Source: an uncultured Spirochaetota bacterium
Lineage (GTDB): Bacteria > Spirochaetota > Brevinematia > Brevinematales > JAOACQ01
Length of the DNA: 64,000 nucleotides
Direction of reading: 5' to 3'
Assembly (NCBI GenBank): GCA_963783575.1
Contig: CAWAOD010000003.1
Coordinates: forward strand, 128,001-192,000
Positions 2,032 through 61,302 of this stretch are shown here, in pieces. The position numbers and the translations under genes were made by a program. The notes beneath the pieces were generated by a model, which saw nothing but the letters and a program-made list of their open reading frames with translations, did not search any database and had not been told where the DNA came from. Position 1 is the stretch's first letter. Each line of letters starts with the position of its first letter.

Positions 2032-2051
2032 AAAACCTCCAGTTTGTAAAC

Positions 2052-2148
2052 GGTATGAAACGGACATCCCCTGGAGGAAGGTTACTGACATATTACTTTT
2101 TGATCTATGCATCCGGACTACCAACCGGATAGTGTTTTTATCCATACC
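2052..2148 (-). ncRNA. yjdF (azaaromatic) riboswitch
   Basis: Minus strand reads ggtatggaTAAAAACACtatcCGGTTGGTAGTCCGGATGCAT...TGTCAGTAACCTTCCtccaGGGGATGTCCgtttcatacc, matching the yjdF RNA consensus as I recall it. P1 (ggtatgga/tttcatacc) closes just before the yjdF RBS. Confidence 0.9.
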
Positions 2149-2237
2149 AATAAATCACTTATTTCCTTTAGTTAATAACTTTATTAATAACTTTTTTTTA
2201 AAACCTCCTTATATTGAGATATTGAGACTTAGAAAAT

Positions 2238-6847: not shown

Positions 6848-7147
6848 AGAGTTCATGCCGAGCCCGTCGAAGCACGGTTTCCATAGCGTAGATATCTGCT
6901 TATTAAATATTGAATTATCCGATTTTTATTAAACATTCTTATTTCATTCAATAGCGGGACAATAGACAATCGTTTTAACCTTCAAGCTAAGAAGCAATAG
7001 GAGCACGGACAATTTTGCTGAAAAATAATGTGAAATGGCGCTAATGCTGCAGAGGCATTAAAGCAGACTTATTTTATTGCTAAAGATTATTGGAAACTGC
7101 TACAGGAAAAAGAATCACTGGTATAACCTACAAATCAAACAATCAAT

Positions 7148-7465: not shown

Positions 7466-7684
7466 ATGGATTATAACAAAGAAAAAGCGGACGAAGTATG
7501 CCTGGCTCTTCTGATTTTGACATCATTTGAGGAAAAGGGAATAATAAAAGACGAACCCATTCGTAAAGCATGGAAAGGGATGGCATGGGAAGTCCTGGGC
7601 AGGCTTTATGAAAAAGGGTATATCAGCGATCCGAAGAATAAAAACGGGGAAAGGATTAGTATACTTCGACTGCACTCTGTATAA
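7466..7684 (+). pseudogene. DUF6429 family protein, apparently C-terminally truncated
   Basis: MDYNKEKADEVCLALLILT...RKAWKGMAWEVLGRLYEKGYISDPKNK resembles DUF6429. The usual KSVxLTEEG tail is missing and a REP-like CTTCGACTGCACTC (~7664-7677) lies there. GGAGG RBS at 7456. Confidence 0.6.
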
Positions 7685-7761
7685 ACTCTGCCTCTGAGGA
7701 AGTATGGACTAGGGATTTGATGTTTTTTAACAGGAAAAAGGAACGGGGAGGAGAGAAAAAA

Positions 7762-9415
7762 ATGAAATTTACCGAAAAAGATATTCAAGCGATTACTTCG
7801 GAACAGTCATACCTGCGCGGTGTTGAATATTATCATGATGGCCTGGTTGAAATAACTGAACTGGCAAATGATTTTGTCCGGGCTGAAGTGGAAGGGTCGA
7901 TCACTTATATAGTGAAAGTGAACCTGAAAGATCTTGAGGATTATTCCTGCACCTGTCCATACGACCTGGGGGGAGCCTGCAAACATATCGCGGCAGTGCT
8001 TCTTGATGTACTGGAACAGCAGCATGCCGGTAAAATATCTTCCGTCATAAAGACCCCGGCTGCAGCGGAAACCACGGATGATATACTGAAAAAAGTATCT
8101 CTGGAAAAGTTGAGGAAATTCCTTAAAAAGGAAATGGATGATAATCCGGACATAAAAGACAGGTTTCTAATCCTTTTTGGTGAATTTTCTTCAAAAGAGA
8201 ACAGTCGGACGGTTGAGTATTACAGGAAAAAAATGACCAAATCCATGGAGGAATATGACCGGTACCATAGTTATATCTTATACAACGCTCCGGATTTCGA
8301 CCGTTTTTATAAAGAAGCAGACATCTGGATGTCAAAAAAACAAGCCTCTGGAAGCGATGAAAATTTACCGGGCGGCGGCGGAAAGTATAGCTGCGGTATC
8401 TGCAGGTGTGGATGATTCCGACGGGTATTTTTCGGATGAGTTTGAGTTTGCCGTCTCAGAATTCACGGATATAGCCGCCGGCCTGGATTTACAGGAAAAA
8501 AAGAATGCGATGGAATATCTATTTGACAGATATATCCGGAATGACCCGGACTACTATCAGGAATATTATGATAATGCGCTGAGAATACTGGCCGAAGGAA
8601 AGCAAGAGCTTCTCATCTGGGAAAACCTTTTGAAACCTTATTTTGAGAAAATACCGCAGGAAGGAGTGGAGGAAATCAATTATCAGGAACATGATATTTT
8701 GGATTCATGGCTCTGGATTCAGGACGGTCTGGATAGAAAAGAAGAGGTAAATAAAATATATGAAAATTATTACCACGTCAGCAGCATGATTTTCGAAAAG
8801 TATCTGGAGAAACTAATCGGGGCCGGTGAACCGGAAAAAGCGAAAGATATCGCCGAGGAGAGGGAGCCGCATTTATTTCCACGTGCGCAAATTGCGGCGC
8901 GCGAGTTTTTGGTTTCCTATTATAAAGGAAAAGACTGGGAAAAGTATTATGAAAAAATGGAGAAGCTGTTCAAGAGCAGTTCCGGATGGAATTATTATGA
9001 TGAAATGAAGAAGTCGCTTCCCCGTGAGATATGGGACAAAAAACTTCCCGATTTAATCGAATATATGAAAAAGAATTCTCATTATACGACATTGATTGAC
9101 CTGTATATCCGGGAAAACAGGAAAACCGAGGCGCTGGAAACGCTTCTCAAACAGTCGTGGACGGAGCCTCTGGCGAAATATCTGAAGACACTGGGTGATG
9201 TAAATCCCGGCTTATATTTTGAGGCGTTCAGGAAAGCCATAGAACCGCGGACTAAAGACGCTTCCTCCAGGGGGCATTATCGGAATGTGGCGGCATGGCT
9301 AAAAAAAATGAAGACTCTTAAAGGGCAGGAGAGAAAATTTCGGGATTTTTTGGATGAAATCAAAAGAAATAATACCCGCAGACCGGCTTTTTTGGAAGAA
9401 TTGAAGGGAATATAA
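7762..9415 (+). CDS. SWIM zinc-finger domain protein with helical C-terminus (split by +1 frameshift at A7 run 8334-8340)
   Basis: SYLRGVEYY...AEVEGS.TY.V...YSCTCPYDLGGACKHIAAVL (CxC..CxH SWIM) and C-terminal RRPAFLEEL; removing one A joins IWMSK to NKPLEAMK. Confidence 0.8.
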
Positions 9416-9454: not shown

Positions 9455-11971
9455 ATGGAGAAGGAAAGGGAGTTTATAGCGCATTATAGGGAAAAAGATA
9501 AGAAACCTCAAACTGTAGCAGAACATTTACTACAAGTTTCCCAAAAAACTGGTAAATTTGCATCAATAATCGGTTTAAAGGAAGTTGGAGAACTTATCGG
9601 TTTGCTTCATGATCTAGGAAAATACAGTGAAGAATTTCAAAATTATATTGGATCGGCAACGGGATTAATTGATATTGATGAAGAAAATTATGTTGATAAA
9701 ATCGGGAAGAAAGGAAAAATTGACCATTCCAGCGCAGGAGCGCAGGTAATTTTTGAATATTTTTTTCCTAAAGGCCCAGAGGGTCTGATTATCGGTCAAT
9801 TTTTATCTCTGTGCATAGCTTCACATCATTCAGGATTAATTGACTGCATTGAACCGGATGGAACAAATAATTTCAGTCGTCGTTTAAGTAAATCGGAAGA
9901 AAAGACTCACAAAAACGAGGCTATGAATAATATTTCCGATGATTTAAAACAAAAATTAAATAAGTTATTATCTGATGAAACTGTTGTCAATCAATTAGTC
10001 TGCAAGCTTAAGAATTTAATAGACAAAAATAACGATTCAAAAGAAACTTTTAATTTCAAGAGAGGTTTATTGATTCGCTTTCTTTTTAGCTGTCTGGTTG
10101 ATGCCGATCGTCTGGATTCAGCAGCTTTTGAAAAACCGGTAGGAACTATGTTTAGAAATTATGGGGATTATACCTCCTGGGATATTTTAATTGAAAGGCT
10201 GAATCAAAAAATCATCGAATTTGACGCTAAGGTAAATAGAAATAAAGTGGATCGGATCAGAAAAGAAATATCCGATGACTGCTATTCTTTTGCTGATCAT
10301 ACAAATGGAATTTATCAATTGACAGTCCCAACAGGCGGGGGGAAAACTCTTTCCAGTTTAAGGTTTGCTCTTTGCCATGCAAGACGGAATAAAATGGATA
10401 GAGTTGTTTATATTGTTCCTTTCACTACCATTATCGACCAAAATGCAGAAGAAGCAAGAAAAATTCTGGAGGATCGGGATTCAAAAGGAAAATATTTGAA
10501 CCGCGTAGTATTGGAACATCATTCAAACTTAACACCGGAAGAAGAGAACTGGACACAAAAGTTATTATCGGAAGACTGGGATGCGCCGGTTGTATTTACA
10601 ACCAGTGTTCAATTTTTAGAATGTTTGTTTGGATTCGGTACCAGAAGTGCAAGAAGAATGCACCAGCTGGCTAATTCGGTAATTATTTTTGATGAGATTC
10701 AAACTATACCGATAAGGTGTGTTCATCTTTTTAATATTGCTCTTCGCTTTCTGGTTCAGAATTGTGGATCGACGGCAGTACTTTGCACTGCGACTCAACC
10801 GCTCCTTGATTTATCTAAAATAAAACCGGAATATAAAACTCGCTCTTTATCCATCATGCCAGAACAACAGATGATGAAAGATGTGAATAAGCTTTTTAAG
10901 AATTTGAATCGGGTTGAGGTATTTTATAAGAGAATAGCTGGAGGCTGGACAGATATCGATGTAAAAGATTTGGTTCTGGAAGAACTTCAGGAAACGGGAA
11001 GTGTCTTGATAGTTGTTAATACAAAAAAATCGGCAAAAACATTGTATAAAACTATCCTGAATGAAAACCGGGGAAAAACTTTTCATTTGAGTACCGATAT
11101 GTGCCCCAGACACAGAATGATCGTTTTGAAGTATATTAAAAGACGTCTGAAAAAAGAACCTATTATTTGTATTAGCACACAATTGATAGAAGCCGGTGTT
11201 GATATTGATTTTGGGTCGGTTATCCGTTATCTGGCCGGTTTAGACTCCATTGCGCAGGCGGCTGGACGCTGTAACCGTGAAAACAGATTATGCGATTCCG
11301 AAGGGAATTTAAAACCCGGCCGGGTTTTTATTATTAATCCGATAGATGAAAATCTTGATAAACTTGAGAATATCAGTATAGGCAAAGAAATAACGGAACG
11401 TGTATTAAATGCGTATAAAAATACACCGAATAGTTTTGATAACAATATACTGGGACCAAAGGCTATGGAACTTTATTATCAATATTATTTTTATGAACGG
11501 CAGAATAAAATGAATTATCCTGTTGGAAAAAATTCGGAAGCTGGCAGGGAGGATAATTTATTTAACTTATTATCAGTCAACAGCCTGTCTGTTAAAAATT
11601 ACTGGAAAAACAATAATGATACATCACCGAACATACCGCTGAAACAGGCTTTTATGACCTCTGCGAAAGAATTTCGTGCATTTGATTTACCCACAAGAAG
11701 CTTGATTGTGCCTTTCGGAAGAATGGGAAAAAAGATAATAAATGAACTTTGTGCTTCACCGGATATGGAAAAAGAATTTAAACTTCGTAAAAAAGCACAG
11801 AGGTATTCAATTAATTTGTTTCCCTATATTTTCGATAAGTTGATTAAGAAGGGGGCTATTCATGAAGTTCAGAAAGGAGCAGGCATATATATTCTGGACA
11901 AACAATATTACAGCAATCAATTTGGACTGAGCGAAGAACCTGTCAACGAAATGGAATTTTTAAACATATAA
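9455..11971 (+). CDS. cas3: CRISPR-associated helicase/nuclease Cas3
   Basis: HD domain (QTVAEHL, LLHDLGK, IDHS, SHHSGL, LVDADRLD); SF2 motifs PTGGGKT, DEIQ, TAT, STQLIEAGVDID, QAAGRCNRE. Confidence 0.95.
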   Translation: MEKEREFIAHYREKDKKPQTVAEHLLQVSQKTGKFASIIGLKEVGELIGLLHDLGKYSEEFQNYIGSATGLIDIDEENYVDKIGKKGKIDHSSAGAQVIFEYFFPKGPEGLIIGQFLSLCIASHHSGLIDCIEPDGTNNFSRRLSKSEEKTHKNEAMNNISDDLKQKLNKLLSDETVVNQLVCKLKNLIDKNNDSKETFNFKRGLLIRFLFSCLVDADRLDSAAFEKPVGTMFRNYGDYTSWDILIERLNQKIIEFDAKVNRNKVDRIRKEISDDCYSFADHTNGIYQLTVPTGGGKTLSSLRFALCHARRNKMDRVVYIVPFTTIIDQNAEEARKILEDRDSKGKYLNRVVLEHHSNLTPEEENWTQKLLSEDWDAPVVFTTSVQFLECLFGFGTRSARRMHQLANSVIIFDEIQTIPIRCVHLFNIALRFLVQNCGSTAVLCTATQPLLDLSKIKPEYKTRSLSIMPEQQMMKDVNKLFKNLNRVEVFYKRIAGGWTDIDVKDLVLEELQETGSVLIVVNTKKSAKTLYKTILNENRGKTFHLSTDMCPRHRMIVLKYIKRRLKKEPIICISTQLIEAGVDIDFGSVIRYLAGLDSIAQAAGRCNRENRLCDSEGNLKPGRVFIINPIDENLDKLENISIGKEITERVLNAYKNTPNSFDNNILGPKAMELYYQYYFYERQNKMNYPVGKNSEAGREDNLFNLLSVNSLSVKNYWKNNNDTSPNIPLKQAFMTSAKEFRAFDLPTRSLIVPFGRMGKKIINELCASPDMEKEFKLRKKAQRYSINLFPYIFDKLIKKGAIHEVQKGAGIYILDKQYYSNQFGLSEEPVNEMEFLNI

Positions 11972-11981
11972 GGGGTGACAT

Positions 11982-12768
11982 ATGGAAAACAGAATCAGAA
12001 ACACGGTTGAATTCAAGGTATCCGGTAAATATGCCCTGTTTACCGACCCACTCACAAAAATCGGCGGTGAAAAATGTTCCTACCAAATTCCAACCTACGA
12101 AGCTCTAAAGGGCATTCTCAGTTCCGTTTACTGGAAACCCACAATTATCTGGATTATTGACAGAATGCGGGTAATAAAACGCATCAAAACCCAGACCAGG
12201 AGTATGAAACCTCTGAATTATGGAGGTGTATATCCAACGGCTAGAGATTTAAGCAAAAAAGAAGAACCATTTAACTCATTGTCAATTTATACTTATCTTG
12301 CCGATGTGGAATATCAGGTTCAGGCGCATTTTATATGGAACAAGTATCGGGAGGATATGACGAAAGACAGGAATGAAAATAAGCACCATTGCGTTGCCCG
12401 CAGGATGATCGAGCGCGGTGGCAGGCGGGATATTTTTCTGGGAACACGGGAGTGCCAGGGATATGTAGAGCCTTGTGTATTCGATAAAGAAACGGGATTT
12501 TATGACAATTATGGTGAACTTTCTTTTGACCTGATGTTTCATGGATTTGATTATCCGGATGAGATCGGAGAACCGAAACTTTACTCACGGTTTTGGAGGC
12601 CGAAGATGATAAACGGAATTATTGATTTTATCAACCCGGATGAAAAAAACGATAATCGTCATGAAACGGAAGTTTGTCAGAAGAATGACCGCAAAACCTC
12701 TGGCTTCAAACGGACTTGAAGAAGAAGGCTTGTTGGAAGGTTGTGAAAATAAGGAGGCGGAAATATGA
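11982..12768 (+). CDS. cas5: Type I-C Cas5c (Cas5d); +1 frameshift at A7 run 12643-12649 near the 3' end
   Basis: ALFTDPLTKIGGEKCSYQIPTYEALKGIL..YWKPT, GGRRDIFLGTRECQGYV. Removing one A gives KRKFVRRMTAKP..GLEEEGLLEG ending at a TGA that overlaps the cas8c ATG. Confidence 0.9.
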
Positions 12769-14726
12769 GCTGGATTCAAAAGCTCTATGATACCTATGAA
12801 GCATGTCAACCTGTGATTGGAAAGGATATTAAAAATCCGCTTTTGCCAATATGCCACATTTTACAAAAGGTTCAAATTGAGATTACAATTGATAACGAGG
12901 GCAATTTTATTAAAGCAGAACCAATATATAACGAAAACGAAGCAAAAACAATAATTCCTTGTACAGAAAACTCCGCAAGCAGAACAAATAGTCCAGCACC
13001 ACACGCGCTTTGTGATAAATTACAATATGTTGCGGCAGATTATAAGGAATTTGGCGGAGAAAAAAAATCATATTATAGTGATTATCTAAAACTGTTAGAG
13101 TCCTGGTGTAAATCAGAATTCAAACATCCGAAAGCTGTAGCTGTCTTTGAGTATATTAAAAAATGCCGAATAATTGCGGACTTAGTGGATTCTAAGGTTT
13201 TTTATGCTAAAGATGGAAAATTAATGAAAAAGTGGGAAGGAGAAAAAAAGGATAAGCCAAAACTGTTTACAATTTTCCAAAATCAGACTTGGCAAGCTGA
13301 GTCATTTATACGATGGATTATTATAAAACCGGGAGAACTCCAGACAAAAACTTGGACTGATGAATCTCTCTGGAAAAGCTGGATAGATTATTATTCAAAT
13401 TTAAGAAATGAAAAAGGATTCTGTTATGTAAAAGGAACTTCCTTATTACTTACAGACTTACACTCAAGGTACATCAGGAAAGAGGGAGATGGAGCAAAAT
13501 TAATTTCTTCTAATGACACATCTGGCTATACCTTCCGTGGTCGGTTCTTAAATGCAGATCAAGCCAGTGGAGTCAGTTTGGAAGTTTCCCAAAAGGCGCA
13601 TCTTGCATTGCAATGGCTAATAAGGCGGCAGGGGAAGATTTTTTATGTCAAAGGTGATAATGGAAAGTTTGAACCCGCTTTAACTATTGTTGCTTGGTCA
13701 ATTTCCGAAAATCAAACTCCTGATTTAATAATGGTTGATACCTCTGGGATAATAGGTGAAGACGATTTGCCAAGTGATGAAGCATCGTTAGCCTATACCG
13801 CCCAGGATTTTGCTTTAAAATTGAACAAAAAAATTTCCGGTTACAGTCAAAATCTGAGAGATACAAAAGGTGTAGTTGTGATGGGTCTGGATTCCGCCAC
13901 TCCCGGACGTATGGCAATCACTTTTTATAGAGAATTGACCAGTTCGGAATTCCTGGATCGGGTAGAAAACTGGCACAAGACCTGTTCCTGGATTCATGAT
14001 TATGGTGTAAAAGAAATAGATAAAGATGGTAAAATGGAGAAATCTTACTATCGGTTCGTCGGCGCTCCATCTCCTGATGACATTGCACTGGCAGCCTACG
14101 GCAGGCATTTGGATGATAAACTCCGTAAATCGACCGTGGAAAAGCTTTTACCGTGCATCATTGACGGGCAAAAATTGCCAAAAGGTCTGGTAGAGTCGGC
14201 GATCAGTCGTGCGAGTAACAGGGTTGGAATGAAAAATTGGGAATGGAACAAAACGCTCAGCATTGCCTGCGCGCTTTATAGAAAATATTACGAGAATGAA
14301 AATTATAACGGAAAGGAGGGTTTTGATATGGCACTTGAAGAAAACCGAAGAACCAGGGATTATCTTTACGGAAGGCTTCTAGCACTTGCAGACAGGCTGG
14401 AGGAATATGCGTTAAGCAAATCAGGAGAAAAAAGGGCGACAAACGCCGCAAGATATATGCAGCAATTTGCTAACCGTCCCAATAAGACATGGCAGCAGAT
14501 TGAGACGGCATTATCTCCTTATCTTGCAAGACTAGGAGGCAGGGCAATCTGGTATAAAGATTTGGTAGATGAAGTAATGGGCAAATTCGATTCAGTCGAG
14601 AGCTTTACGTTAGATAAACCATTAACTGGTGAATTCTTATTGGGCTATCATTGTCAAAGAGAAAAGCTAAAACCATCAAAAAAAGAAGAAAATCAGGATG
14701 ATTTTTCTGAAAAACAAGAAAGTTGA
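12765..14726 (+). CDS. cas8c: Type I-C large subunit Cas8c (Csd1)
   Basis: MSWIQKLYDTY, TIIPCTENSASRT..PHALCDKLQYVA, AKLISSND..GYTFRGRF, LDSATPGRMAI, DYLYGRLLA, EFLLGYHCQR. Confidence 0.95.
   Translation: MSWIQKLYDTYEACQPVIGKDIKNPLLPICHILQKVQIEITIDNEGNFIKAEPIYNENEAKTIIPCTENSASRTNSPAPHALCDKLQYVAADYKEFGGEKKSYYSDYLKLLESWCKSEFKHPKAVAVFEYIKKCRIIADLVDSKVFYAKDGKLMKKWEGEKKDKPKLFTIFQNQTWQAESFIRWIIIKPGELQTKTWTDESLWKSWIDYYSNLRNEKGFCYVKGTSLLLTDLHSRYIRKEGDGAKLISSNDTSGYTFRGRFLNADQASGVSLEVSQKAHLALQWLIRRQGKIFYVKGDNGKFEPALTIVAWSISENQTPDLIMVDTSGIIGEDDLPSDEASLAYTAQDFALKLNKKISGYSQNLRDTKGVVVMGLDSATPGRMAITFYRELTSSEFLDRVENWHKTCSWIHDYGVKEIDKDGKMEKSYYRFVGAPSPDDIALAAYGRHLDDKLRKSTVEKLLPCIIDGQKLPKGLVESAISRASNRVGMKNWEWNKTLSIACALYRKYYENENYNGKEGFDMALEENRRTRDYLYGRLLALADRLEEYALSKSGEKRATNAARYMQQFANRPNKTWQQIETALSPYLARLGGRAIWYKDLVDEVMGKFDSVESFTLDKPLTGEFLLGYHCQREKLKPSKKEENQDDFSEKQES
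14328..14726 (+). CDS. cas11: Cas11c small subunit translated from an internal start in cas8c
   Basis: AAGGAGG RBS at 14313-14319 and in-frame ATG 14328 (MALEENRRTRDYLYGRLLA), giving 132 aa; internal Cas11 translation is established for type I-C. Confidence 0.8.
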   Translation: MALEENRRTRDYLYGRLLALADRLEEYALSKSGEKRATNAARYMQQFANRPNKTWQQIETALSPYLARLGGRAIWYKDLVDEVMGKFDSVESFTLDKPLTGEFLLGYHCQREKLKPSKKEENQDDFSEKQES

Positions 14727-14740
14727 AATAACGGAAGCAC

Positions 14741-14808
14741 CCGGTCATTGAGCGGAGTCGAAATGACCGGTAGATATTTGACGGGCACCTCGGCTCCGCT
14801 CGGTGTCC
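14741..14808. repeat. REP-like hairpin doublet between cas8c and cas7
   Basis: CCGGTCATT-gagcggagtcga-AATGACCGG, 12 nt, GGGCACC-tcggctccgctc-GGTGTCC. Confidence 0.8.
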
Positions 14809-14841
14809 AAATATAATAACAATTTTAAGGAGGAATTTTAT

Positions 14842-15805
14842 ATGGAAACTCTGAAAAACAAAATTGATTTCGCGGTAATTATCAGTGTCAAGAACGCCAA
14901 TCCGAACGGCGACCCACTCAATGGGAACCGTCCCAGGGTCAATTATGAAGGCGAAGGCGAGATTTCCGATGTCTGCATCAAGCGGAAAATCAGAAATAGA
15001 TTGATGGAAGCAGTTGAAACCGATGAAAAATGTGAACCAAAAATTAAAGATGGAAAGCCAATTTACAAATATAAAGTATTTGTCCAGCCGGATGATAATC
15101 GTTTAGATGATTATCGGAGCCTGCGTTCACGTGCGGAAGGCGAATTGAAAGGCATTGATATGAAAGATGATAAAAAGTACCGTGAAGAAGCCTGTAAGAA
15201 ATGGATTGATGTCCGTGCATTCGGGCAGGTGTTTGCCTATAAAGGTGGCAGTAAGAAAGGCAAGAAAGAAACAGAAGGTGAAGAGGAAAAAGGAGATGAT
15301 AAAGGGGTTTCGATAGGTATACGAGGCCCGGTTTCAATTCATTCCGCATTCTCGAAAGCTCTCGTGAATGATCGAGTATCAAGTATTCAAATAACAAAAA
15401 GCGTTAGTGGAGAAGGAGATAGCGGTAAGCGTGGTTCCGATACAATGGGTATGAAACATCGGGTAGATCATGGAATTTATGTATTCTATGGGGCTATGAA
15501 TCCACAGCTTGCAAAATTGCCGCATGGTACTGGCTTCAGTGACGATGATGCAAAAGCGATTAAAGAGACTTTAATTAAATTGTTCCAGAATGACGCTTCA
15601 TCGGCGCGTCCGGAAGGGAAGCATGGAAGTCGTAAAATTGTACTGGTGGCAGCATAATTGTGCTTCCGGGCAATATTCATCAGCTAAAGTTCACCGATCG
15701 TTGACGGTAGAACCAAAAAGTGATAATCCGAAATCGATTGAGGATTATGAGATAAAATTATCAGAATTGCCTGGTTTAAAGCCGGAAATATTGGATGGTT
15801 TATAA
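14842..15805 (+). CDS. cas7: Type I-C Cas7 (Csd2); +1 frameshift at GGG 15616-15618
   Basis: NANPNGDPLNGNRPR, SDVCIKRKIRN, WIDVRAFGQVF, IRGPVSI, DTMGMKH. Removing one base joins NDASSARPEG to SMEVVKLYWWQH..GQYSSAKVH. AAGGAGG RBS. Confidence 0.92.
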
Positions 15806-15840
15806 ATTTTCTCGAAATACTATAGGTTTTCTACTTTCCC

Positions 15841-15886
15841 TTCAGGATTGTACGGAGCAGTCGCGACTGCTCCGTACAATCCTGAA
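15841..15886. repeat. Perfect 46-bp palindrome (GTAG/GTAC-type REP-like) between cas7 and cas4
   Basis: TTCAGGATTGTACGGAGCAGTCG|CGACTGCTCCGTACAATCCTGAA is exactly self-complementary. Confidence 0.85.
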
Positions 15887-15940
15887 AGGCATAATGCGGC
15901 AAGGGTTCCTTAAGTAATATAATAAAAAGGAGGCCATCCA

Positions 15941-16589
15941 ATGCCCTATCCCGAATCCGATCTAATCGCCATCTCCGCACTCCAGCATTACATCTTCTGC
16001 CCCCGCCAGTGCGCGCTGATACATATCGAGCAGGCCTGGGAAGAGAACAGTTTAACCGCCGAGGGAAGAAACCTCCACGACCGCGCACATGGCGATTCGG
16101 CCGAAACCCGTCCGGATTGCCGGAGGATTTTTTGGCATGCCATTGAGGTCGCTGGAACTGGGTCTAACAGGAAAGGCCGACTGCGTAATGGAGACGCCGG
16201 AGGGTAAGTATATTCCACTTGAATATAAGCGCGGGAGGCCGAAAGTAAAAGAAATGGACACCGTCCAGCTCTGCGCGCAGGCTTTTTGCCTGGAGGAAAT
16301 GACGGGGAAAAACATTGAAGAGGGATTTATCTATTATTTCCGGATTAAAAAAAGGCTGCATGTTAATATCGATAAACCTTTAAGGGACTTGACGGAACAG
16401 ACTGTCCGCGGCATACGGACAATGATGGAAAGCGGCAGAACACCGCCGCCGGAATATTCCAAACGCTGCGAATCGTGCTCTCTGGAGGAACAATGCCTGC
16501 CGGAAGCGGTAGGTAAGAAAAAATCCGTGAAGAAATATATCGTGAAAATGTTGGCGGATGATATTTCTAAAGTAAATATAGGAGGCTGA
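15941..16589 (+). CDS. cas4: Cas4 nuclease; +1 frameshift at T6 run 16128-16133
   Basis: ISALQHYIFCPRQCALIHIEQAWEEN, GKADCV..PLEYKRGRPK, VQLCAQAFCLEEM, CESCSLEEQC; removing one T joins RRIF to GMPLRS. Confidence 0.92.
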
Positions 16590-16591
16590 AT

Positions 16592-16978
16592 ATGCCTTAT
16601 ATGTATATACTTGAATGCTCTGACGGGACCTATTATACTGGAAGTACATGGGATTTGGAAAAAAGATTGGATGAGCATAATAGTGGTGCCTCGGAGCCGC
16701 CAAGCGGCCGGGGAGCAAATTATACCAGGAAAAGACTGCCGGTAAAAATTGTTTATTTTGAACAATTTGAACGGATTGAATCTGCTTTTAAACGGGAAAA
16801 GCAAATTCAAAATTGGAGCCATGTGAAAAAGAAGGCTCTTATAGATGCAAATATTAATTTAATCCATAAATTTGCTATTTGCAGAAACCAAAGCCGGTCT
16901 CCGAGCGTAGTCGAGGAGCCGGATGATACGAAATGGTCGTCTCGGCTTCGCTCGACGACCGATATAAAAGGAAATTAG
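16592..16978 (+). CDS. Small GIY-YIG nuclease family protein (UPF0213-like) inserted between cas4 and cas1
   Basis: YMYILECSDGTYYTGST.DLEKRLDEHN..GANYTRKRLPV..AFKREKQIQNWSHVKKKALI; GGAGG RBS inside the cas4 3' end. Confidence 0.9.
   Translation: MPYMYILECSDGTYYTGSTWDLEKRLDEHNSGASEPPSGRGANYTRKRLPVKIVYFEQFERIESAFKREKQIQNWSHVKKKALIDANINLIHKFAICRNQSRSPSVVEEPDDTKWSSRLRSTTDIKGN
16894..16960. repeat. REP-like hairpin doublet in the GIY-YIG 3' end
   Basis: CCGGTCTCC-gagcgtagtcga-GGAGCCGG, 12 nt, GGTCGTC-tcggcttcgctc-GACGACC; same architecture as 14741-14808. Confidence 0.8.
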
Positions 16979-16980
16979 TC

Positions 16981-18012
16981 ATGAAACGCCTTCTCAACAC
17001 TTTATTTGTAACCACACAGAAAACCTACATGAGAAAACAGGGGGAAACACTGGTTGTCCAGCAGGGAAAGGACATTCTGCTTCAACTGCCGCTGATCAAT
17101 CTTTCAAGTATCGTCTGCTTCGGAAATATCCGCATCAGCCCTTTCCTGCTTGGGAATTGCCCGAAATACGGGATCAGTGTGAGTTTCCTGTCCCAATACG
17201 GCAAATTTCTCGCGCGTGTACAGGGTCCGGTATCCGGCAATGTACTGCTCAGGCGTGCCCAATACCGGATGACGGACGATTCTAAAATCTGTGCTGATAT
17301 TATCCGAAATATAGTCATCGGAAAGATTTCCAACTGCAGGACAGTTCTGCAAAGGGCGCAAAGAGACCATGCAGGTAAAATCGATGAAGCTAAAGTCAAT
17401 AGCGCTGTCGAATCACTGGAAAGGGCAATGAACAAAGCCATGGAAGCGAAAGAAGCGGATGTATTGCGTGGAATTGAAGGTGATGCGGCCCGTGAATATT
17501 TTGGAGTATTCAATGAATTAGTCGTCACACAAAAAAATGATTTTACATTTAATGAACGTTCAAGAAGGCCGCCGCTGGACAGGGTTAATGCTCTTTTGTC
17601 CTTTGTTTATACCCTGCTTTATCATGATATGCGCTCTGTACTGGAATCTACCGGGCTTGATCCGGCAGTCGGTTTTCTGCACCGCGACCGGCCGGGGAGA
17701 TTGTCGCTCGCTCTTGATTTGATGGAGGAATTCCGGCCGTATTTTGCGGACAGGCTTGTTTTGTCATTGATAAATCTTAAACAGATCGAACCGAGACAAT
17801 TCAGAATTCTGGAAAACGGCGCCGTTTTAATGAATGATGCGGCAAGGAAAACGGTTTTAGCAGCTTATCAAAAGCGCAAGCAGGATTCGATCAGGCATCC
17901 ATTTGTTGACAATGATATGCACATCGGCCTGTTATTTCATACGCAGGCTCTTCTTCTGGCAAGGTATATCCGGGGAGATATTGATGGCTACCCGCCTTTT
18001 ATCTGGAGGTAA
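16981..18012 (+). CDS. cas1: Type I-C Cas1
   Basis: MKRLLNTLFVTTQ, GPVSGNVLLRRAQY, LRGIEGDAAREYF, RSRRPPLDRVNALLSF, GFLHRDRPGR.SLALDLMEEFR, YPPFIWR. Confidence 0.96.
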   Translation: MKRLLNTLFVTTQKTYMRKQGETLVVQQGKDILLQLPLINLSSIVCFGNIRISPFLLGNCPKYGISVSFLSQYGKFLARVQGPVSGNVLLRRAQYRMTDDSKICADIIRNIVIGKISNCRTVLQRAQRDHAGKIDEAKVNSAVESLERAMNKAMEAKEADVLRGIEGDAAREYFGVFNELVVTQKNDFTFNERSRRPPLDRVNALLSFVYTLLYHDMRSVLESTGLDPAVGFLHRDRPGRLSLALDLMEEFRPYFADRLVLSLINLKQIEPRQFRILENGAVLMNDAARKTVLAAYQKRKQDSIRHPFVDNDMHIGLLFHTQALLLARYIRGDIDGYPPFIWR

Positions 18013-18014
18013 TT

Positions 18015-18302
18015 ATGATGGTTCTGGTCAGTTATGATGTTGCGGAGGATGAGCTTGGTAAAAAAAGACTCAGGCATGTTGCAAAAATCTGCAAAAACTT
18101 CGGGCAGAGGGTTCAGTATTCCGTATTCGAATGCCTGGTAGATCCCGCCCAATGGGCTAAAATGAAAGATGAACTGATCCGGGAAATTAACCCGAAGTTC
18201 GACAGTCTCCGATTTTATTTTCTTGGGGCTAACTGGAAAAAGAGGGTTGAACACCTCGGGGCAAAAAAGAGTTACGACCCGGAAGGTCTTCTATTAGTTT
18301 AA
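18015..18302 (+). CDS. cas2: Cas2
   Basis: VLVSYDV..KRLRHVAKICKNFGQRVQYSVFEC..DSLRFYFLG. Confidence 0.96.
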   Translation: MMVLVSYDVAEDELGKKRLRHVAKICKNFGQRVQYSVFECLVDPAQWAKMKDELIREINPKFDSLRFYFLGANWKKRVEHLGAKKSYDPEGLLLV

Positions 18303-18476: not shown

Positions 18477-19900
<1,424 letters not shown>

Positions 19901-38108: not shown

Positions 38109-38423
38109 CTTCTGGCTTTGTGTCATCGTGTAGCTAAAGCTCTCAATGCGCGTCGGTGCGCGGTTGGTTAGCCCTTAAGCAAGCTCAGGACAGGCTTGAC
38201 GAATCACTGGGCAGGCTGCTTGACCTAAACTATCATTATATCAGTTCTTTGGAAGTAAATATGGATCAAGCATCATGCCTGGAAAAATTATGTTTAAAAA
38301 TCTTGATTTATAACAAATTTAATAGATAATATATAGTACTTAAAAAATTATGATTCTGCAAGGATTTAATAATATTAATGTAAGGTATCGGATACCGTCA
38401 TAATTAAAGGAGATTAAATCAGA

Positions 38424-41058: not shown

Positions 41059-41070
41059 TATATGAATTAA

Positions 41071-41275
41071 ATTCCTGGGGTATTCGTGTAGAATGGATAT
41101 TTTCGGGTTCTATATCCATATAAAAGGGATTCCGATCTCCATGTGGAATTGCTTCTCTTTTCCGGCTCTTTATGAACCGATTGAGGGGAAACAGGAAGTA
41201 TGGGTACGAATTCCGCCTTGTAAAAAGGAACCGGAAAAACGGTTTTCTTACGGTACCCCGGGTTTATAATATATA
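41071..41275 (+). ncRNA. ssrS: Probable 6S RNA
   Basis: ~205-nt intergenic rod: CCTGGGGTAT/GTACCCCGGG closing stem, TTTTCGGGTTCT/GGAACCGGAAAA, central A-rich bubble, GGGATTC/GAATTCC, CCATGT/GTATGG, CTTCTC/GAGGGG, apical CGGCTC/GAACCG. G-U pairs fit the + strand. Confidence 0.75.
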
Positions 41276-61145: not shown

Positions 61146-61302
61146 TGAAAGAAAGTATTTTCTATTGGAATTCCCTCGTAAGAGCTCGGGATAAGCTCCA
61201 CATAGCTGAGATGAATTAACCTGATCAAGCGGCCTGTCCTGAGCACGACGAAGGGGCACGCTTGTTAAAGTCTGTATAGAACAAATTTCAGGAGGCAATG
61301 GT

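Follow-up and report, generated by a model that had tools for sequence, protein, structure and literature searches.

A small GIY-YIG nuclease gene and a tagged hairpin repeat form a linked pair, a conclusion strongly supported by the gene's relatives. We analyzed a 64,000-nucleotide stretch from an uncultured Spirochaetota genome (contig CAWAOD010000003.1, positions 128,001 to 192,000; below, "the window" means this whole stretch), in which the gene sits between cas4 and cas1 of a type I-C CRISPR operon. Across phyla, an oriented, structured repeat brackets one branch of these nucleases, with independent insertions at junctions of defense and DNA-handling genes. The cassette of nuclease and cognate repeat is probably a passenger at type I-C junctions, and by analogy with the Neisseria meningitidis enzyme SsnA (Chenal et al. 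2025; PMC11893778, cited here, like PMC13037366 and PMC3733652, from the accessible part of the paper) the nuclease is predicted to nick beside a hairpin in single-stranded DNA (ssDNA). An earlier note on this DNA had described the gene and its hairpins and had suggested that the enzyme might serve CRISPR adaptation. The gene is where that note placed it, and all coordinates given there are correct; the role in adaptation fared worse, as set out below.

The gene encodes a 128-residue protein whose ribosome-binding site, AGGAGG at 16580-16585, lies within the end of cas4 (stop codon 16587-16589) and whose own stop codon precedes the cas1 ATG (16981) by 2 nt. The conserved domain spans residues 1-100, ends near 16890-16891, and carries a C-x-N motif near its C terminus. 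Residues 101-128 form a non-conserved 28-residue tail that arises by reading through a hairpin doublet and has a pLDDT of about 50 in the structure model; because this tail is hairpin read-through, conservation does not extend to the 2-nt gap before cas1. Of the tight coupling on both sides described earlier, the ribosome-binding site in cas4 and the stop 2 nt before cas1 therefore stand, but the coupling to cas1 runs through a tail that is not conserved. Residues Y5, Y15, G17, R25, H29, and E69 are invariant among 69 aligned homologues out of 120 listed, which suggests that the protein is likely an active nuclease. With fewer than 150 residues and the catalytic Tyr, Tyr, Arg, His, and Glu all present, it is a single-domain protein: Pfam finds the GIY-YIG domain alone, no NCBIfam or PADLOC model matches the protein, and the closest solved structures are UPF0213 proteins, followed by Slx1 and UvrC. 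We note that most homologues lack residues about 33-39 (16688-16710), a 7-residue excess whose coding stretch includes a small GC hairpin (z -1.65); it resembles the tip of variant hairpins and may be a repeat remnant inserted in frame. The same genome holds a nuclease paralogue (G000:C11:87583-87900, L095; labels of this kind are our handles for genomes, contigs, and loci) with variant GAGTGAT...GTATCGAG hairpins on both flanks, a 5′-truncated nuclease copy at G000:C3:331366-331494, and many dispersed hairpins of the variant type.

Two hairpin doublets lie in the operon, one between cas8c and cas7 (14741-14808) and one at the 3′ end of the GIY-YIG gene (about 16894-16961). The 12-nt core, GAGCGNAGYCGA, has four exact copies in the window, all in these doublets, and one single-mismatch copy at 7666; these 5 matches (≤1 mismatch) compare with 0.74 expected, and none of 100 shuffles reached 5. 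Together with folding z scores of -4.3 and -2.8 for the doublets, this shows that both, which the earlier note had reported, are real. A whole doublet can alternatively fold into a single long hairpin. The last unit, unit 4, marks the right end of the cassette, like the downstream minus-strand copy of most relatives. The linkers within the doublets, once taken to be the same, agree in length (12 nt) and differ in sequence. The loops are complementary, as had been observed, but merely because the second is one repeat read on the opposite strand, which rules out a kissing-loop or other special loop-loop design. Four degenerate single copies elsewhere in the window are recognizable as decayed members of the wider family, but they are weak and fold no better than shuffled sequence (z -0.8 to +1.3). 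Genome-wide, we counted nine exact copies of GAGCGNAGYCGA against two of the reversed control; a looser detector of generalized hairpins returned 38 matches versus 20 in the reversed genome and was excluded from the counts. No Rfam family was found at the hairpins of the window and 10 further loci (11 sources). Another candidate, the "COG2827 RNA motif", was unmatched by Rfam, and a literature search for it gave no relevant result.

Across relatives, the repeat unit has a consistent anatomy: a 5′ CGNT tag, a covarying stem of 4-6 bp, a constant GA/CGA internal loop, and a GCGNAGY tip. Covariation was measured on 99 distinct units in 101 rows, with the window's four included and no more than two taken from any other locus; 91% of 792 stem cells are paired, and the covariation score of 0.643 compares with 0.251 for shuffled alignments (0 of 500 as high) and at most 0.165 in slid controls. 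Upstream of the stem, C occupies position -8 in 201 of 285 units and G position -7 in 244. The related GCGNAGC is a DNA-specific, stable mini-hairpin that is far less stable as RNA (PMC13037366), and the GCGNAGY tip would be expected to fold likewise as DNA, an expectation based on that published structure and not on folding-tool prediction; its closing G-Y pair is G-T in 60 units and G-C in 39. Variant loops, which most loci without the 12-mer carry, keep GAG...CGA around a different tip. The C-x-N protein end follows this division, occurring in 59 of 62 proteins beside core hairpins and in 0 of 29 beside variant hairpins, although an independent-pairs comparison yields 2 supported pairs only; the accompanying quick-method tree has 109 rows and leaves out 11 that lack the start motif, as well as nine loci that were duplicate or broken. 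The window genome itself encodes one core-type (C-x-N) and one variant-type nuclease.

The pairing was assessed in 80 loci retained out of 208 found in GTDB genomes, which span Proteobacteria, cyanobacteria, Bacteroidota, Geobacter, Chloroflexota, spirochaetes, and others. An exact match to the 12-mer lies at -500 to 0 or +250 to +800 of the nuclease start in 50 of the 80 and on both sides in 41, at a density of 2.78 copies/kb near the gene versus 0.147 further out; the reversed motif occurs there in 0 of 80. The layout is that of inverted termini: of the copies closest to the gene, 43 of 45 upstream ones are on the plus strand and 38 of 46 downstream ones on the minus strand. When variant loops are counted, hairpins accompany 73 of the 80 relatives. 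The core hairpin is beside none of 49 distant GIY-YIG genes on viral contigs, and a phage search for clade members returned distant homologues (34-51%) only. Co-occurrence, position, and covariation thus bear out a pairing of nuclease and repeat like that of the REP-associated tyrosine transposases (RAYTs) with their repetitive extragenic palindromes (REPs), as the earlier note had proposed, and the pairing has a published counterpart in Ssn and its NTS repeat (PMC11893778).

The most frequent setting of these loci is a restriction-modification operon. We ran Pfam on the nearest open reading frame on each side (143 frames, 80 loci) and found hsdS immediately downstream in 25 loci and hsdM upstream in two more, so that 27 of 80 lie in type I restriction-modification operons; gyrB-gyrA-type (3) and ssb-helicase (2) junctions also occur. 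No Cas family and no Y1 transposase family appears among the 143 frames, and tblastn with the window's Cas proteins gave a match within 4 kb at 0 of 80 loci. Among 13 additional loci from two other phyla, seven are in hsd operons and none has a Cas gene within 1.5 kb. The host phylum was covered by 301 genomes, with the clade in 43 and cas1 in 115; here 2 of 29 clade loci adjoin cas genes and six adjoin restriction-modification genes. One cas-linked member (G175) sits immediately 5′ of cas3 and is flanked by four hairpins, a fifth following cas7; another (G181) lies between cas3 and cas5 with variant hairpins. Homologues are thus enriched near the motif, as the earlier note had predicted, while near cas genes, at type I-C junctions, the enrichment is weak; at 0 of 80, 2 of 29, and 0 of 13 loci, the family is not one that resides mostly or stably in cas loci, as a CRISPR accessory would. 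Still, there is a genuine bias of cassette and hairpins toward the gene junctions of type I-C operons. Outside defense loci, cassettes or doublets seem often to adjoin gyrase/topoisomerase, ssb, helicase, uvrA, and helix-hairpin-helix genes (L001, L021, L022, L026, L053, L054, L068, L103, L360).

The cas4-cas1 junction of related operons provides empty sites. In G005 and G006 (two operons), which belong to the same family as the window genome and whose cas1 is 65-79% identical to that of the window, cas4 abuts cas1. The GIY-YIG ATG of the window occupies the position of the cas1 ATG in these operons and uses the same ribosome-binding site at the end of cas4, and the cassette therefore inserted at the cas1 start. 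The clade is present at 0 of 42 other cas4-cas1 junctions, three same-family operons included; 36 of these junctions are direct, and the six with inserts represent three events, namely, a RhuM gene, a two-gene cassette with a duplicated cas1 start that reads as a putative toxin-antitoxin pair, and a different GIY-YIG gene. The last is of the Ssn type and lies in type I-C operons on five metagenomic contigs that look like one strain (L312 4750-5850, L309-L311, L313). It groups with NTS-flanked Ssn-type proteins (100/100) and is ringed by about ten CGTC/TGTC-ATTCC hairpins, which the published SRM pattern does not match. Two I-C cassettes (L170 3090-3930 in G235, and L324 1400-4000) have at their borders a duplicate of the ribosome-binding site and start of the cas gene that follows (cas1 for G235, cas4 for L324), which suggests that such duplicated-start cassettes arose through recombination at gene starts.

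Hairpins are also found in a genome in which the clade profile has no match. G005, 99% complete, has 6 of its 17 core copies at cas junctions (cas3-cas5, cas8c-cas7, cas7-end, array-cas4); both stems of its cas7 doublet recur in that of the window, which has the opposite orientation, although the two cas7 genes are only 28% identical. The I-C locus of G005 is a mosaic (L359 = G005:C27; L098 = G005:C19), in which the upstream gene remnant is 64% and cas1 73% identical to the window, while cas3/5/7 share 26-31% identity with the window and 58-76% with G181. Most other I-C operons that we fetched carry no hairpin copy.

In the account that we favor, the nuclease would nick beside the tag on exposed ssDNA, such as the lagging strand or incoming or recombining DNA, and the hairpin-gene-hairpin unit would be released, or its copying primed, by a nick at each end, the two on opposite strands. 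The resulting ends could lead to copying of the repeat and entry of the gene into new junctions, repair would spread lone hairpins and doublets, and loss of the gene would leave doublets behind, as at cas8c-cas7 in the window and at four G005 junctions. Favored sites would be the junctions of long DNA-defense operons that are exchanged horizontally, hsdM-hsdS far above cas, probably because a promoterless cassette gains an upstream ribosome-binding site and transcription there and because these loci recombine often; type I-C junctions would then be one of several permissive landing sites.

Several observations weigh against this account. Binding, cutting, and mobility are ascribed to the nuclease by analogy, and the analogue, Ssn, is 32-36% identical and belongs to a separate branch; the constant part of the repeat here is the loop, whereas cutting by SsnA did not need the loop (PMC11893778). 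The 5′ hairpin present in 45 of 80 relatives is missing from the cassette in the window, and no near-identical strain pair with and without the insert, from which its ends could be mapped, was found. The 80 loci are non-independent, with clusters in Geobacter, Methylococcaceae, and cyanobacteria. Finally, cas junctions are richer in the cassette than would be expected of a passenger inserting at random: 2 of 19 clade copies, in two genomes from a single family, lie <10 kb from cas1 versus 0.155 expected (P about 0.011), and four of the nine exact GAGCGNAGYCGA copies of the window genome fall within the 9-kb cas operon.

The same concentration at operon junctions could reflect a domesticated module-shuffling device, in which hairpins mark the borders of exchangeable modules (hsdM-hsdS; cas3-cas5, cas8c-cas7, cas7-cas4, cas4-cas1), the nuclease nicks ssDNA to steer recombination, and the host keeps the pair to diversify specificity. 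Insertions do cluster at hsdM-hsdS and at four different I-C junctions, the mosaic locus of G005 has hairpins at its module borders, and SsnA changes the recombination of NTS-bearing DNA in vivo (PMC11893778). However, I-C mosaicism is common without hairpins; most I-C operons fetched have no hairpin; putative toxin-antitoxin, RhuM, Bro-N, and MNT-HEPN cassettes at the same junctions indicate a general landing site; and hairpin copies also occupy gyrB-gyrA-type, ssb-helicase, and many unrelated junctions, so that we regard such a device as unlikely. A role of the hairpins as RNA, with the nuclease gene hitchhiking, is harder still to credit. They would act as REP-like stabilizers or processing sites that set stoichiometry, for example, by raising Cas7, and the doublets indeed lie between genes of multisubunit operons, one directly 5′ of cas7 in two distant operons; REPs have been reported to lie for the most part 3′ of coding regions and to be plausibly transcribed (PMC3733652). 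Yet the copies face both ways, with upstream ones mostly on the plus and downstream ones mostly on the minus strand, the cas7 doublet of G005 has the reverse orientation of the window's, Rfam found no family in the 11 sources, and the tip fold is DNA-specific (PMC13037366).

It is very improbable that the hairpins are ends moved by a RAYT or an IS200 TnpA, with the GIY-YIG gene as cargo. Y1 transposase-family genes do exist in G000 (2) and G005 (5), doublets resemble REPIN or REP dimers, and hairpins persist in genomes without a close nuclease, but a core hairpin lies within 1.5 kb of 0 of the 7 Y1 genes, the one inspected has different palindromes of its own, and no Y1 family occurs among the 143 neighbors. 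Hairpin type instead appears to track the C-x-N end of the nuclease. The role in adaptation suggested by the earlier note, in which the nuclease makes or trims prespacers for Cas4-Cas1-Cas2, is scarcely tenable. It draws on the translational coupling to cas4 and cas1, on the independent Ssn-type GIY-YIG gene at cas4-cas1 in one metagenomic strain, and on the mild enrichment near cas1. Against it stand the restriction-modification setting of 27 of 80 relatives, the lack of cas neighbors at all 80 cross-phylum loci, the same-family cas4-cas1 pairs without the gene, and the absence of the clade from all 42 other junctions, 36 of them empty. In addition, the other cas-linked members adjoin cas3 and not cas4 or cas1, the protein matches no PADLOC or NCBIfam model, no spacer bears the motif, and Cas4 is already there for trimming. 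A CRISPR function for the GIY-YIG gene is thus unlikely, and a mobile nuclease-repeat cassette, a passenger in this operon, is the likely reading.

On that reading, the nuclease-hairpin pairing known from Ssn (2025) also occurs in a branch that stands apart, spans phyla, and follows another logic of recognition, a constant structured loop on a free stem. This supplies a concrete candidate substrate for a group of GIY-YIG proteins and, perhaps, a novel cutter of ssDNA at specific sites. It also counsels caution, as small nuclease genes that are tightly coupled inside cas operons can be passengers; the cas4-cas1 junction has accepted four unrelated cassettes among 43 operons. If the junction bias is selected, it would offer a mechanism for reshuffling the modules of immune systems. 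A far-reaching version, which we think doubtful, is that the clade makes up a second family of programmable ssDNA nucleases, so far undescribed, that recognizes a bulged hairpin with the ultrastable GCGNAGC mini-hairpin as its cap, with specificity set by the C-terminal motif, and that bacteria use such pairs, Ssn included, to mark and reshuffle module borders of immune operons (hsdS; the Cascade, Cas3, and Cas4-Cas1-Cas2 blocks).

The window belongs to a 4.9-Mb assembly in 18 contigs, and the positions of the features discussed here are collected in Table 1. The frames of cas7 (about 15620), cas4 (about 16130), and the upstream SWIM gene (about 8300) are each broken into two in the assembly, and one neighboring spacer pair (19386-19480) is distinguished by small indels alone. 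The split frames and near-twin spacers look like long-read assembly error, with decay of the locus as the alternative; in the single DNA sequencing run that we found, short identical pieces are present, and the insert and frameshifts are unbridged. Among the runs listed, no RNA run contains this sequence. The hairpin core is absent from all 20 spacers of the array, which include none derived from hairpin DNA and none that is self-targeting. Directly 5′ of cas3 is a SWIM zinc-finger gene (7717-9415), whose N-terminal part matches PADLOC PDC-S62 (E 1e-14) and of which a remnant also precedes cas3 in G005. Between cas7 and cas4 lies a near-perfect palindrome (15838-15889; 26-bp arms, zero spacer, folding z -11.8), present once in the genome and bearing no relation to the GAGCG repeat; it is possibly a REP of another family. 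Elsewhere in the window, Rfam matches an azaaromatic (yjdF) riboswitch (2044-2151, minus strand) and a 6S RNA (41069-41268, plus strand).

Table 1. Positions in the window of the GIY-YIG gene, the hairpin units, and the surrounding CRISPR locus
Feature	Position	Strand	Basis
Stand-alone GIY-YIG nuclease gene, 128 aa, between cas4 and cas1	16592..16978	+	Pfam GIY-YIG, E 1.7e-14
Ribosome-binding site at the cas4 end with the GIY-YIG ATG	16580..16594	+	
Hairpin unit 1, cas8c-cas7 junction: CGGT tag, 9-bp stem, GAGCGGAGTCGA	14741..14770	+	
Hairpin unit 2, inverted copy, GAGCGGAGCCGA	14783..14808	-	
Hairpin unit 3, 3′ end of the GIY-YIG gene: CGGT tag, stem, GAGCGTAGTCGA	16894..16922	+	
Hairpin unit 4, inverted copy: CGGT tag, stem, GAGCGAAGCCGA	16935..16961	-	
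Degenerate core-type copy, one mismatch; fold not above chance	7666..7677	-	
Degenerate copy, variant loop type GAGCYYGTCGAA; weak	6860..6871	+	
Degenerate variant-type copy; weak	38172..38189	-	
Degenerate variant-type copy; weak	61238..61254	+	
Type I-C operon: cas3, cas5c, cas8c, cas7, cas4, (GIY-YIG), cas1, cas2	9455..18302	+	Gene calls, Pfam, PADLOC
CRISPR array, 21 repeats, 20 spacers	18478..19847	+	

Among known systems, UPF0213/YazA/YhbQ proteins (PDB 1zg2, 1ywl) have the same minimal domain and give the best PDB sequence and fold matches (E 2.5e-12, 2.4e-5), but the UPF0213-like genes that we examined (L131, L307, L308) are without flanking hairpins. UPF0213-like proteins score 81-129 bits with the clade profile versus 157-202 for full-length clade members, and ten of them form a 98/94 branch without the query in an unrooted tree in which the monophyly of the clade itself has support of 27/0. 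In REP/REPIN-RAYT systems, a small nuclease gene is bracketed by its own repeats, inverted doublets occur, and the hairpin is recognized as ssDNA; the cassette resembles them in the bracketing repeats and inverted doublets. Unlike RAYTs, which are HUH-type Y1 tyrosine transposases, the protein has a GIY-YIG hydrolase fold by Pfam and fold matches, so no covalent strand transfer is expected, and CGNT replaces the GTAG tag. The RAYT genes of G000 and G005 have other repeats of their own.

The CGTC REP families have a CGTC tag, a stem of 8-9 bp, a loop of 4-5 nt, and a CCA tail (Di Nocera et al. 2013, PMC3733652). Like the repeat described here, they are tagged palindromes that form dimers, are frequent near replication and repair genes, and have no dedicated transposase found (PMC3733652); the accessible text of that paper contains neither the term GIY-YIG nor the string GAGCG. 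They differ in that the loop here is structured and 12 nt long, and the CGTC tag occurs in 4 of 247 distinct units. Two copies elsewhere in the window genome join a GTC-ATCC start to a core-type loop, and the CGTC families and the GAGCG repeat therefore look related, with the tag suggesting common ancestry. Our literature search, which left most subscription papers outside its scope, returned no description of the GAGCG repeat or of a GIY-YIG gene tied to cas4/cas1 or to hsdS and hairpins, and the hairpin motif strings retrieved unrelated papers only.

The closest parallel is Ssn with its NTS and SRM repeats (PMC11893778). Both systems have a single-domain GIY-YIG gene of about 100 residues, inverted, oriented hairpins on both sides (on the 3′ side only in the window), repeats dispersed through the genome, and an unpaired 5′ tag, which is CGTC in Ssn and CGNT here. 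SsnA binds NTS in single-stranded form only, cleaves a few bases 5′ of the hairpin, and alters recombination of NTS-bearing DNA in vivo (PMC11893778). The window's protein is, however, 32-36% identical to NTS-flanked Ssn-type proteins and falls outside their 100/100 branch, in a tree with seven Ssn-type proteins (six obtained through exact NTS matches and one from a cas operon) in which SsnA itself was not included. SRM has no match in the window or in the flanks of the 80 relatives (positive control, 80 of 80 NTS loci), and NTS is found at 0 of 80. The recognition logic also appears to be reversed: here the loop is constant and the stem free, but SsnA depends on the sequence of its stem and can do without the loop (PMC11893778). 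This branch shows a strong bias toward hsdM-hsdS and recurs in cas operons; the accessible part of the Ssn paper mentions neither UPF0213 nor hsdS or cas loci for its genes (PMC11893778). The earlier note had offered the whole as a candidate for an undescribed system, which is apt for the branch and for its hairpin type, whereas the kind of system to which they belong is that already represented by Ssn/NTS.

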